Part shown: piece by piece, positions 8,836-14,668 of the stretch
How the letters are laid out: every line of letters starts with the position of its first letter
How positions within the stretch are numbered: position 1 is the first letter of the stretch
Assembly (NCBI GenBank): GCA_004524535.1
Contig: SDNY01000058.1
Location: 1 to 21,955, forward strand
Direction: 5' to 3'
DNA from: Promethearchaeota archaeon
GTDB taxonomy: Archaea; Asgardarchaeota; Lokiarchaeia; Sigyniarchaeales; SOKP01
Length of the DNA: 21,955 nucleotides
Translations under genes and position numbers: made by a program
Notes under the pieces: model-generated
The model's database searches: none
What the model was told of the DNA's origin: nothing
Seen by the model: only the letters and a program-made list of their open reading frames with translations

Positions 8836-11130
<2,295 letters not shown>

Positions 11131-11147: not shown

Positions 11148-12299
11148 CTACAATTCTTTAATAAAGCTTTCAATTCTATCCATAGCTAATTTAAGTTTTT
11201 CTAACTCGGTTGCGTAAGAGATTCTTAATAAAAAATCTGAGAAAGAGCCAAATATATTGCCAGGAACTATTGCTACTCCTTTTTCTTTAATTATTTTTTC
11301 TGAAAAAGCTTGACCTGTCATGTTAAATTTTTTAACTGAGGGCATTATATAAAACGCACCAAGAGGTTTGACTACATCAAAACCTATTTCATTTAGTCTA
11401 TTATACACAAACATACGTCTTTCGTCAAAACTCTTTAAAATATCATCAAAAAAACTATTGTCCATCTTTAAAGCTTCAATAAATCCATATTGAGCAGCGT
11501 GATTTGTCCCCGCAATTGTATACTGGAGATATTTTTCCATTAGGTCAATGATTTCCTTATTTGCTGCTACATAACCCAATCTAAAGCCCGTAGCGGAGTA
11601 TAACTTACTCATTGCGTTGAGCGTAATCGTTCTTTCAAACATACCTTTAAGAGAGGCTGGACTTGTATGCTTTAAACCTTCATAAATATAATTCTCATAT
11701 GCTTCATCACTTATCAAATATAAATCGTGTTTAAGAACTATACTAACAATCTCCTCTAATTCTTGCTTGCTTAATACATAACCAGTTGGATTATTCGGAG
11801 AATTAATAAGAATCGCCTTAGTTTTATTTGTAATTGACGCTTTTATATTCTCGATATTTGGACTAAAATCTAAATTTCGTTCAATTTCAACAATATTAAC
11901 CCCAAAAAAAGAACCGCAATAGAAATACGAAACAAAATTCGGTGATGATAGAATCAGCTCGTCACCAGGATTAAATATCGAGGCAAACGCAAGTGTAATA
12001 GCGTTAGAACCTCCATTACACAATATAATGTTATCTTTCCAGTTTAGTTTAATATTATTAATTGTTTCTAATTTCTTTTCAAGCAATTCTAATAGCTTTG
12101 GTACGCCTCTCGTTGGAGCATAGGTAGTGATGTTTTTCTTTAGTGCGGCAATATTACCTTGTATCGCTGGGAGAGGAGTAGGAAAATCTGGTTGACCAAT
12201 ACCAAGACTAATAACATCAGAGCGCCCAGCCGCAAGGTCAAATAATTCTCTAATTTTAGATTTTGGAGCTGCTATGACTTTTTGAGATAGTTCTTTCAT
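11148..12299 (-). CDS. Class I/II PLP-dependent (aspartate-type) aminotransferase
   Basis: LGIGQPDF, INSPNNPTG, ISDEAY, MSKLYSATGFRLGY. Confidence 0.95.
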   Translation of the reverse strand: MKELSQKVIAAPKSKIRELFDLAAGRSDVISLGIGQPDFPTPLPAIQGNIAALKKNITTYAPTRGVPKLLELLEKKLETINNIKLNWKDNIILCNGGSNAITLAFASIFNPGDELILSSPNFVSYFYCGSFFGVNIVEIERNLDFSPNIENIKASITNKTKAILINSPNNPTGYVLSKQELEEIVSIVLKHDLYLISDEAYENYIYEGLKHTSPASLKGMFERTITLNAMSKLYSATGFRLGYVAANKEIIDLMEKYLQYTIAGTNHAAQYGFIEALKMDNSFFDDILKSFDERRMFVYNRLNEIGFDVVKPLGAFYIMPSVKKFNMTGQAFSEKIIKEKGVAIVPGNIFGSFSDFLLRISYATELEKLKLAMDRIESFIKEL

Positions 12300-12392
12300 A
12301 ATAATATTTTTCTGAGTTAATTAATTTTAAAAGATTTTATCTTTATAGAATAAACTTATAAAAAGAGTTATTAATCAAAATATAAAATTAAA

Positions 12393-12970
12393 CTAAGCAG
12401 CTTCACCTAATTTTTTTAAAATATTATAAACCAAATTTTCAAATGCCTTTTCGACGTTTTCTCCGTACTTGGCACTTGTTTCAATGAAATCACTCGCATT
12501 AATTTCTCTCATAAAGCTATTGCCCTCTTCTGTTGAAACCACGCGTTGCTCCGTTAAATCAGTTTTGTTACCGATTAATACGTAGGTTCCTTCTTGTTTC
12601 ACATATTTCTCGAAATCCCTTAACCATTTAGAATTTACAGTTTCAAAAGTGGAACGTCTGGTTATATCATAAACTAATAACGCTCCAACACACCCTTGGA
12701 AATACATTGAACGAATTACATTATATTTCTCTTGTCCAGCGAGGTCCCACATAATTAATCTAACCTTTACGTTAATTTTATTAATATAAATATCTTTTCT
12801 AATGATATTAGCTCCCAGAGTGGGTTTATAATCCTCTTGGAAAGAATGTTCGATATATTGATTTATTAATGATGTCTTACCAACGGCCGCGTCCCCTAAA
12901 ACCACGATTAACTTCGCTAAGACGACGGGTCTTAAGCTTTAAAGACGAATTCTTTAATATCTTCAGACAT
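12393..12970 (-). CDS. Rab-like small GTPase, 182 aa after splicing (join 12970-12939, 12909-12393)
   Basis: Exon 1 MSEDIKEFVFK joins IVVLGDAAVGKTSL; WDLAGQE, NKTD, ETSAK. The track ORF (GTG 12905) lacks the start of beta-strand 1. Confidence 0.9.
12910..12938 (-). other. Canonical BHB mRNA intron (29 nt): AGCUUAAGACCCGUCGUCUUAGCGAAGUU
   Basis: Central helix CUUU(12944-41)/GAAG(12915-12); bulges AA|A and UU|A; intron stem GCU(U)AAGAC/GUCUUAGC. Cleavage after the second bulge nucleotide restores the frame and FK-IVVLGD. Confidence 0.88.
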
Positions 12971-13023
12971 TTAGGGATACCGCCTCATTCCTCTGCTCAT
13001 TTTTATCAACTCATATTTTACAT
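12971..13023 (-). other. Candidate 53-nt leader intron (relaxed BHB) ending at the Rab start codon; contains uORF MSRGMRRYP*
   Basis: Helix AGGG(13029-26)/CCCU(12976-73), bulges AA|A and AA|A, exon stem CAAAUA/UGUCUG 5 of 6; intron-side stem imperfect. Confidence 0.45.
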
Positions 13024-13072
13024 TTCCCTTATTTGTAATTATATTAATATTTTTATTATGCTTTATTTTTTT

Positions 13073-13609
13073 TTATTTCCATAATAATTTTAAAATATGC
13101 GAATTTTGCGTTTCTTTTTCGCTTACATAAGTAACATTTTTATTTTCTGGTAACGATTTCTTTAAGGATTGAACAAGAAACCCAAAGAATAGCTGGCAAG
13201 GAACTCCAATTTCATGACAAAAAACACAATTTTTAATTTCAACTGTAAAAGAATTTACTCCTTGATCTATAATTTGTACATCCCAATCTGTTTTTATTAA
13301 CTCGGTAATTTCTTCTACTATATCTTGAAAACTTTTACCATAAGGATACAAGTATATAGCAAGTTTCATGCCGAGATTATATAAGAGCTTATAACATCCA
13401 TATAGCAAAGAATTTTGAGCTATGATTAATTTCTTAAAAGTAAAAAAATCTATAGTCCCATTTGGATCAACTTCTCTAGCATCCTTTAAATCTAACATTT
13501 CAGCTTCTTTTAAAACAGATTTCATTCCATCGTAATCAAGGATATCTAAATAAGCTTGTAATAGCGCCGTAACGACCTTGTTTTTTACTTCCTCGTTATA
13601 TTCTCCTAT
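13073..13609 (-). CDS. V4R-like domain protein; probable start upstream of the track's ATG 13525
   Basis: CVFC..GVPCQLFFGFL V4R-type motif. Frame stays open and protein-like (NKVVTALLQAYLDILDYDG) to 13615; ATA 13609 lies 6 nt after an SD-like GGTGA. Start uncertain. Confidence 0.7.
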   Translation of the reverse strand: MGEYNEEVKNKVVTALLQAYLDILDYDGMKSVLKEAEMLDLKDAREVDPNGTIDFFTFKKLIIAQNSLLYGCYKLLYNLGMKLAIYLYPYGKSFQDIVEEITELIKTDWDVQIIDQGVNSFTVEIKNCVFCHEIGVPCQLFFGFLVQSLKKSLPENKNVTYVSEKETQNSHILKLLWK

Positions 13610-13690: not shown

Positions 13691-14224
13691 TTAATGGTCA
13701 CCTAAAATTTCATAAACTAAATTTAAAAACGCTTTTTCAACATTGTTTCCTTTCTTAGCACTTGTTTCTATGAATTCAATAGCGTTAATTCGTTTTGCCA
13801 TCTCTTTAGAATCTTCTTTAAAGACATATCGTTGATCTTCCAAATCGTTCTTGTTTCCAATTAATATAAGTGAGCCTGTTTTTTCAACATATTTCTTGTA
13901 ATCTGTTAACCACTTAATCTCTATATTTTCAAAGGAAGAATATCTAGTGATGTCATAGACTAATAACGCTCCCAAACAACCTTCGTAATAAGCGCCCCTA
14001 GTTATTTCATATTGTTCTTGGCCGGCGATATCCCAGAGGATTAGTCGGGCATTGGCATTAATTTGCTCGAGTTCAATATTTTTCATAACGATATTTACTC
14101 CTAATGTCGCTCGATAATCTTCTTTAAAAGAAGCTGAAACAAATTGATTAACTAAAGAGGTCTTACCAACTCCAGCATCTCCCAATACGGCCAGCTTCAA
14201 AACATATTGTCCTTGTTTAGACAT
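13691..14224 (-). CDS. Rab-like small GTPase (intron-less paralog of 12393-12970)
   Basis: YVLKLAVLGDAGVGKT, WDIAGQE, NKND, ETSAK; shares GALLVYDITR and NVEKAF.NLVY with the neighbour. Confidence 0.95.
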   Translation of the reverse strand: MSKQGQYVLKLAVLGDAGVGKTSLVNQFVSASFKEDYRATLGVNIVMKNIELEQINANARLILWDIAGQEQYEITRGAYYEGCLGALLVYDITRYSSFENIEIKWLTDYKKYVEKTGSLILIGNKNDLEDQRYVFKEDSKEMAKRINAIEFIETSAKKGNNVEKAFLNLVYEILGDH

Positions 14225-14239
14225 TTTATCTTCCTTTTT

Positions 14240-14668
14240 TTATAATTCTAATAATGATAAATTAAAAGTTGATTCATTAACCCGGTTTAATTTTTGATTA
14301 ATTTCGTAAATAAAAACTTCTGCAGTAACAGAGATTATGCTCGGTTGACTTAAATGACCTCCAATAAGATTATAATCACCTTTTCCAACTGAAATATGAA
14401 TGTGAATTATTGGATCTCCGTCCTTATAAGAGATGTTTCCCATGCAGGATATGAGTTCTACATTTTCTTCAAAAGTTTTAAATTTATATTCTTTTGTATT
14501 AAGATCAAAATAGCCTATCGTAAATTTTTTAAAGGCTCCAATAACATTTATTAATCCGCCTTTTATATCATAATTTTTAACAAGAACTTTTATTGCATCG
14601 ATTAAATCCTCATCAGGCATTACTCTTGCAACAATAACCCTTCCAATATTCGTTTCAATACTTTTCAT
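14240..14668 (-). CDS. PPC/DUF296 domain protein
   Basis: ELISCMGNIS, IHIHISVG, IGGHL, TAEV motifs. Confidence 0.9.
   Translation of the reverse strand: MKSIETNIGRVIVARVMPDEDLIDAIKVLVKNYDIKGGLINVIGAFKKFTIGYFDLNTKEYKFKTFEENVELISCMGNISYKDGDPIIHIHISVGKGDYNLIGGHLSQPSIISVTAEVFIYEINQKLNRVNESTFNLSLLEL

Follow-up and report, generated by a model that had tools for sequence, protein, structure and literature searches.

A predicted 29-nt bulge-helix-bulge intron in a Ras-family GTPase gene of a Promethearchaeota archaeon, with inserts of the same shape in nine other genes

A bulge-helix-bulge (BHB) intron in an archaeal mRNA is reported for the cbf5 pre-mRNA of Crenarchaeota (Yokobori 2009, PMC2738675). 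Apart from the BHB intron in the 5′ untranslated region of HVO_1309 of Haloferax volcanii, a substrate of the endonuclease EndA, it is the only mRNA intron of this kind reported, according to the available part of the article describing the latter (Schwarz 2020, PMC7714728). Here we analyse a Ras-family GTPase gene on a stretch of 21,955 nucleotides (nt) from a Promethearchaeota archaeon (contig SDNY01000058.1 of assembly GCA_004524535.1), the whole of which is called the window. The gene is interrupted by 29 bases (12938-12910, minus strand), which are very probably a BHB pre-mRNA intron that is spliced out by EndA and RtcB.

As far as the available parts of the two articles describe them, both known introns differ from this one. 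The cbf5 intron is, like that of the window, a short BHB element within coding sequence with lineage-specific presence and loss; its removal by the tRNA-splicing machinery was shown experimentally, whereas splicing in the window is predicted. In addition, cbf5 is a single gene of thermophilic Crenarchaeota, whereas here an Asgard Ras-family GTPase is concerned, together with at least ten further introns, most of them young, in nine other genes of its genome. The HVO_1309 intron was demonstrated in vivo and in vitro and lies in an untranslated leader, in contrast to the window intron, which lies in coding sequence. The leader of the window gene holds a 45-nt block that is perhaps comparable, but no strict motif could be fitted there.

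Work on introns in Asgard archaea concerns, in the text available from each source, tRNA genes (PMC11291895; bioRxiv 10.64898/2026.10.13.758758). These introns share lineage, motif and enzyme with the proposed one and show repeated recent gains with no clear route of arrival; in the available text of the preprint the word “mRNA” is absent and “protein-coding” is used just for neighbouring genes. No report of BHB introns in Asgard protein genes was found in a literature search with most subscription journals and supplements outside its reach. The BHB mechanism is already known; what appears new, as far as we could find, is its occurrence in this lineage and in these genes, and above all how many introns there are and how young they are.

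Two further systems invite comparison. Translational bypassing is reportedly used by T4 gene 60 and by the “byp” elements of a yeast mitochondrion. Such elements are said to be short, hairpin-forming, frame-breaking and G+C-richer than their AT-rich host DNA, like the window insert, but to need matched take-off and landing codons and to stay in the mRNA, whereas the borders of the window insert lack such repeats. In the HAC1/XBP1 system of eukaryotes, as commonly described, an mRNA is likewise spliced by protein enzymes, the ligation is of RtcB type and the reading frame changes at the junction, although the endonuclease is Ire1 acting on stem-loops and not EndA acting on a BHB. A role of RtcB in XBP1 splicing is given in the available part of PMC8718801.

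The interrupted GTPase gene and the motif at its insert

The window is contig C148 of G000, a metagenome-assembled draft genome (3.66 Mb, 198 contigs, 30% G+C) that is rated 99% complete. On its minus strand the unspliced frame from ATG 12970 runs into a stop after 12 codons, and a 170-codon open reading frame (ORF) in another frame opens at GTG 12905 and ends with a stop at 12393. This ORF belongs to the Ras family (Pfam PF00071, E 1.7e-50) and covers profile positions 4-161 of 162, and a paralogous GTPase two genes upstream (13691-14224) covers positions 1-160. The parts of the predicted gene are:

12939..12970, minus strand: exon 1, starting at ATG 12970, with 10 full codons and two bases of a split Lys codon
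12910..12938, minus strand: predicted intron of BHB type, 29 nt, with predicted cuts at 12939/12938 and 12910/12909
12393..12909, minus strand: exon 2, the remainder of the Ras-family GTPase, with its stop codon at 12395-12393

Exon 1 supplies the residues before PF00071 position 4, as in the upstream paralogue, so that the family match becomes full-length. When the 29 nt are deleted by script, the predicted N-terminal peptide results, and it is the same as the one that the orthologues encode without a break. An earlier, sequence-only reading of this DNA had claimed a stop in the unspliced frame, a particular spliced peptide in register with paralogues in the window, and an otherwise intact gene. 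The stop lies where described above, the peptide was reproduced exactly, both paralogues were located (13691-14224 and C148:3556), and the other statements of this reading on the sequence were likewise borne out.

Around the insert the following structure can be drawn:

12946-12945 with 12908-12907, minus strand: outer helix, 2 base pairs (bp), one of them G-U
12944-12941 with 12915-12912, minus strand: central helix, 4 bp (one U-G), between exon-1 bases and intron bases
12940-12938, minus strand: bulge 1 (3 nt), predicted 5′ cut site between its second and third bases
12937-12929 with 12923-12916, minus strand: inner stem, 8 bp and one bulged U
12928-12924, minus strand: loop of 5 nt, closing the inner hairpin 12916..12937
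12911-12909, minus strand: bulge 2 (3 nt), predicted 3′ cut site between its second and third bases

EndA cuts a BHB after the second base of each bulge. In the mechanism that we propose, the central helix would form in the pre-mRNA between four bases of exon 1 and four intron bases close to the 3′ border of the intron. Beside it, each strand would carry a 3-base bulge, the whole being flanked by the 8-bp hairpin of the intron and by a short exon-exon helix. A two-subunit EndA would cut in both bulges and RtcB would ligate the exons and probably circularise the intron. This would restore the split Lys codon and put the first beta strand in frame with the P-loop.

All elements that the sequence-only reading had listed (a 4-bp helix, two 3-nt bulges, an 8-bp intron stem and a short exon stem) were redrawn in this way. 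Its statement that the insert has 14 G+C in 29 nt within AT-rich surroundings also held (0.48 as against 0.28 in the flanks). The term “canonical” that it had used is slightly generous, given an outer exon helix of 2 bp. The inner hairpin has a constrained folding energy of -6.0 kcal/mol and is also the minimum free energy (MFE) structure of the 41-mer, while the drawn motif comes to -3.9 kcal/mol with the outer helix and to -7.3 without it. Plain folding failed to recover the motif, and the MFE was not adopted as a criterion. The weight for the motif comes from the borders of the insert and not from energy folding.

These borders are defined by the orthologues. Exactly the 29 nt in question are missing from 7/7 same-genus orthologues (alignment A1), from 19/19 related loci drawn from 60 related genomes and from 69/69 loci in records titled mostly Promethearchaeota or Promethearchaeia, so that the agreement of structure-derived and homology-derived borders asserted by the sequence-only reading is seen in all three sets. 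The orthologue junction can be reached by only two registers, which are one base apart, and the motif predicts one of them. To estimate how often chance would give such a fit, random inserts were placed in the same flanks and BHB cuts were required at the orthologue-defined borders, with 200,000 trials for each type of insert. The motif fell on the right borders in two shuffles of the insert, in one random 29-mer of 30% GC and in 20 random 29-mers of 48% GC. When the hairpin was kept, and its position and the other 7 nt were randomised, the count was 474.

Two side observations concern the set of 69 orthologues. Sixteen of them have no in-frame ATG ahead of the conserved N-terminus (L095-L097, L099, L101, L102, L109, L119, L121, L122, L124, L127, L128, L130, L132 and L156) and probably use other start codons. 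One of these, L121 (DATKTW010000179.1), comes from a record titled Nanopelagicaceae bacterium among about 70 titled Asgard archaea; this record is probably a mis-binned contig.

The insert was also sought in independent data by aligning contigs of public runs to 12300-13400; the search for runs had given 24 of DNA and none of RNA. Gap-free contigs cross the insert in four runs of three studies. The independent assembly of X1, the likely source run, spans it with 0 differences at a depth of ~52, and the contigs across the insert show 18 differences over 707 nt in X2, five over 152 nt in X3 and 19 over 537 nt in X5. Contigs joined across the insert site, the insert-free form that the sequence-only reading had named as a sign against itself, were found in none of the examined runs. 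A second X5 contig (152 nt) has 10 differences over 89 nt and lacks base 12932 in the 5′ strand of the inner stem. This missing base may be an error (depth 4.3), and a length change at this position would leave the spliced product unaltered.

Scanning metagenome contigs of the Joint Genome Institute (JGI) for any gap of 20-45 nt at the site yielded two loci, L086 and L087, both of which bear the insert. L086, which contains the whole gene, differs from G000 in exon 2 by 12 synonymous and four non-synonymous changes, giving a ratio of non-synonymous to synonymous rates (dN/dS) of 0.079 (binomial P 4e-6). Because these changes separate two insert-bearing lineages, the gene stayed under selection while carrying the insert. 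L087 has two substitutions in the insert, at the first loop base and at the second base of bulge 2, both unpaired, and one change in exon 1, which is synonymous.

A second extra block lies in the leader of the same gene:

12973..13017, minus strand: 45-nt extra leader block directly upstream of the start codon, with borders ambiguous by a few bases

It is missing from 7/7 same-genus orthologues and was found in L086 and L087. The block holds two tiny upstream ORFs, the second of which ends right at the main ATG, and base pairing over 5 bp can close the block. A strict BHB was not found at its borders; the best placement has 4 bp in the central and 3 bp in the outer helix but lacks an inner one.

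Inserts of the same shape in the genome and its relatives

Inspection of the 42 GTPase paralogues of G000 for missing starts gave a second interrupted case:

C161:11850-11881, minus strand: second Ras-like GTPase with a 30-nt insert that contains an in-frame stop (locus L024/L025)

This insert lies two codons further into the first strand and combines a central helix of 4 bp with bulges of 3 nt and a hairpin. Its site is insert-free in 24/24 orthologous loci, and in the closest relative the sequence at the site is identical to the predicted junction. The orthologue of this GTPase in G017 (L047) carries two inserts elsewhere in the gene, one of 30 nt and one of 32 nt, again with the motif present and the protein restored. 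As an observation apart from the inserts, two paralogues (C28 near 549, C138 near 2530 (minus)) lack any ATG, GTG or TTG in frame. The first codon of both would be ATT, directly after a stop codon in one and a few bases past GGAGG in the other, and ATT may serve as a start codon.

The whole genome was scanned for a strict central helix with 3-nt bulges, at least one outer and at least three inner pairs and an insert of 16-40 nt. The merged frame had to reach at least 120 codons with an upstream ATG, and no ORF of 100 codons was allowed to span the site on either strand. With a hairpin of -5 kcal/mol or lower, 14 ORF-merging loci were obtained, as against one, four and one for decoy bulges of 4/4, 2/2 and 5/5. 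At -6 kcal/mol or lower the numbers were eight as against one, one and one. Ten of the 14 loci are convincing, namely the two GTPases and eight others, and an eleventh insert of G000 was found with a relaxed motif in cdhC, 150 nt further on. G000 therefore has the window insert and at least ten more of the same shape in nine other genes. A spanning-ORF limit of 60 codons had dropped the window case, owing to a 71-aa (amino acid) ORF on the plus strand (12869-13084) that runs across the intron in antisense to the 5′ end of the GTPase gene; this ORF is probably spurious. The first, looser scans were unspecific (209,697 motif matches, 35,118 ORF-merging candidates and 118 after the hairpin filter). 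False positives recognised by eye among their candidates included loci with another, intact frame (C54 and C145), pairs of neighbouring genes (C151 and C52), a site within a tRNA-like stretch (C115) and gene ends (C91, C187, C22 and C93).

The remaining inserts of G000 measure 29-34 nt and are given by the last base of exon 1 and the first base of exon 2:

C138:12741/12706: ABC ATPase; exon 1 covers Pfam positions 2-136 of 137
C8:3087/3056: CdhD; Pfam positions 7-135 and 138-227 on either side of the insert
C8:15448/15417: ArgG (argininosuccinate synthase); exon 2 matches from profile position 12
C113:6556/6523: B12-binding mutase subunit (MCM); exon 2 matches from B12-binding profile position 12
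C100:12034/12003: CdhA; Prismane family match
C16:3516/3549: DeoC-type aldolase; family match
C32:3639/3670 and ~C32:3796-3826: CdhC with two inserts; matches to CdhC and its C-terminal domain
C55:4954/4986: CCG-domain iron-sulfur protein; family match

In these genes the Pfam matches run on from one exon piece to the next within a single family, as CdhD illustrates. The inserts of the ABC ATPase (183+165 codons on either side) and of CdhD (232+167 codons) are located mid-gene, and an alternative start could therefore not rescue the protein. In DNA searches the CdhD, ABC, MCM, aldolase, CdhC and CCG genes each had one match in G000. The second match of ArgG is a 149-nt overlap with contig C118 (100% identical), and that of CdhA is a 76-nt piece of 78% identity. 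Several inserts fall in what we take to be the Walker B/D-loop, the PP-loop, the B12 DxHxxG motif and cysteine clusters, a pattern that may lie in the eye of the observer. Searches with blastn-short of the 29-nt and the 45-nt insert against G000 returned only the inserts themselves and other matches of at most 17 nt, and no repeat family was seen.

Comparison with relatives raised the count to 27 inserts, eleven of them in G000; they are distributed over 15 sites and 10 genes in 12 genomes. For the 26 inserts evaluated by script, 3-nt bulges and protein-restoring cuts are present in 26/26; all four central pairs form in 24 and three of the four in two. In the remaining one, the CCG intron of G009 (L234), which was seen in the alignment, 3/4 central pairs were counted by eye. 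The sites are distributed as follows:

CdhD: insert in G000 only; absent from 6/6 spanning relatives
Mutase (MCM): insert in G000 only; absent from 6/6
CdhC site 1: insert in G000 only; absent from 10/10
CdhC site 2: insert in G000 only; absent from 6/6
ABC ATPase: insert in G000, G011 and G021; absent from G008 and G006
ArgG: insert in G000, G008 and G011; absent from 11 relatives
Aldolase: insert in G000, G005, G002 and G011; absent from seven relatives
CCG protein: insert in G000, G014 and G009; absent from three relatives
cdhA sites 1-3, within ~30 nt: site 1 in G000 and G007, site 2 in G010 and G019, site 3 in G007; 12 relatives have none of the three

The insert-bearing loci of relatives are L047 (G017), L074, L182 and L210 (G011), L081 (G021), L176 (G008), L205 (G007), L196 (G010), L200 (G019), L208 (G005), L211 (G002), L231 (G014) and L234 (G009). 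Most inserts are species- or genus-specific and therefore young.

At common sites the intron sequences differ while the structure is kept. Between G000/G011 and G021, two of the four central pairs of the ABC ATPase intron are altered on both sides, and the changes in the exon half of the helix in G021 are synonymous and matched by changes in the intron half. One central pair is altered on both sides in the aldolase intron of G011 and one in the CCG intron of G014, and in the ArgG hairpin of G011 the same holds for the loop-closing pair. Some inserts, common to several genera, are thus apparently kept by compensatory change, and it is difficult to see why an exon base should covary with an intron base if the RNA motif were not in use. 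Of the compensatory changes that the sequence-only reading had proposed as a check, those in sister introns were seen, while the window intron offers two substitutions only, both unpaired. Taken together, it is likely that this Promethearchaeota family is being colonised by minimal BHB introns of 29-34 nt in ordinary protein genes.

The genome encodes the enzymes that such splicing would use. G000 has two EndA paralogues of 201 aa each (~C100:30773-31378 and ~C84:30333-30938) with 29% mutual identity, which match PF01974 at 118.1 and 86.8 bits (cut-off 59.6) and are both above the TIGR00324 cut-off. Fused enzymes align with one of the two over their catalytic half and with the other over their structural half. 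A single RtcB is present (PF01139, 561.3 bits, open frame of 497 aa). Asgard archaea have, according to the available part of PMC5829648, an (alpha-beta)2 EndA with a loop that gives a broad substrate range, and an enzyme of this type would accept relaxed forms of the motif and tolerate a weak outer helix. ARAGORN predicts only 22 tRNAs in G000, 13 of them with introns, in line with reports that Asgard tRNA genes are heavily interrupted.

The splicing reading and its alternatives

Several points weigh against splicing at the window insert. The outer helix is just 2 bp long, and the strict hBHBh′ form asks for flanking helices on both sides. In a 61-nt context the MFE structure folds otherwise (-12.3 kcal/mol, z -1.10, 25/200 shuffles as good), the central helix brings no gain in predicted stability (-7.3 as against -7.4 kcal/mol for the hairpin alone), and the bare geometry of a 4-bp central helix has 527 placements in the 250 nt around the site. 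The two hits of L087 in unpaired bases have a chance probability of ~0.1, since 9/29 intron bases are unpaired. The intron occurs in one species-level lineage only and has no compensatory change of its own, an in-frame GTG (12905) sits 4 nt past the predicted 3′ cut, and the 45-nt insert in the leader could be read as decay. Furthermore, we infer the cutting and joining of the RNA, and its assignment to EndA and RtcB, from DNA sequence.

That GTG could be where the protein starts, in which case the insert and the old exon 1 would form an untranslated leader and there would be no splicing. A 170-codon ORF does open there and purifying selection on exon 2 is equally compatible with it. We nevertheless consider such a start very unlikely, as the ORF would be without PF00071 positions 1-3, whereas the neighbouring paralogue begins at position 1, and as the N-terminal piece with the full first strand is encoded by all 19 and all 69 orthologues. 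Exon 1, moreover, is still an intact ATG frame whose sole change in L087 is synonymous. The exact fit of the BHB would be left unexplained, as would the inserts in the middle of the ABC ATPase and CdhD genes, where a restart is of no help. The confinement to one lineage, the leader insert and the two breaks in CdhC of G000 would all suit an inactivating insertion in a young pseudogene, the motif being a by-product of a hairpin-forming insertion. This idea is hard to reconcile with a dN/dS of 0.079 between two insert-bearing lineages, with only 474 of 200,000 hairpin-preserving placements giving the motif at the right borders and with the excess of canonical geometry over decoys genome-wide. 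In addition, the carbon monoxide dehydrogenase/acetyl-CoA synthase (CODH/ACS) genes and ArgG bear the same kind of insert in a 99%-complete genome, and sister introns covary; we hold decay of the gene to be highly improbable.

Programmed translational bypassing, in which the ribosome would hop over the insert, accords with inserts that are short, hairpin-forming, G+C-richer than their AT-rich surroundings and inside coding sequence with a stop near their start. Its take-off and landing codons, however, need a direct repeat of at least 3 nt, whereas the borders repeat 0-2 nt in 10/10 inserts of G000 and only 1 nt at the window insert, and it does not account for borders that match 3-nt bulges or for a central helix that covaries with exon bases, which leaves it an extremely small chance. 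An assembly or sequencing artefact might be suspected in a metagenome-assembled draft of 198 contigs. It is refuted by the X1 assembly, which is independent and spans the insert without a difference, and by three further runs of two other studies and two JGI contigs that also span it. Among other candidates, curated RNA families including self-splicing introns had 0 matches in Rfam 15 at gathering score over the whole window, and with its 29 nt the insert is much smaller than a ribozyme intron. Excision by EndA with ligation by RtcB is the reading that we adopt for what follows.

Surroundings of the gene and meaning of the predicted introns

The genes next to the interrupted GTPase gene are:

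8848-11130, plus strand: 760-aa protein with two putative AAA ATPase domains (read by eye)
11148-12299: putative aminotransferase-like ORF of 383 aa
13073-13525: ORF of 150 aa without a Pfam match
13691-14224: second Ras-family GTPase (Pfam)
14240-14668: PCC-domain protein (Pfam)

If the predicted splicing takes place, a mechanism known from mRNAs of Crenarchaeota and Haloferax is now seen in the closest prokaryotic relatives of eukaryotes, and in a eukaryote-like GTPase gene. The window intron would be part of a group of young introns found in genes of central metabolism, and their presence and absence among near relatives opens the arrival and spread of enzyme-spliced introns to study. The mRNAs would thereby be tied to the recent reports of heavily interrupted Asgard tRNA genes.

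There would also be consequences for annotation. Gene callers would give truncated genes, split genes or pseudogenes at such sites, as in the window, where a 170-aa protein starting at GTG 12905 would be called. Gene catalogues would accordingly be mis-called systematically, and genes called in this way would distort the protein catalogues that are used for work on the origin of eukaryotes. If the proposed colonisation is real, pre-mRNA splicing by tRNA-splicing enzymes would be routine in these relatives of eukaryotes.

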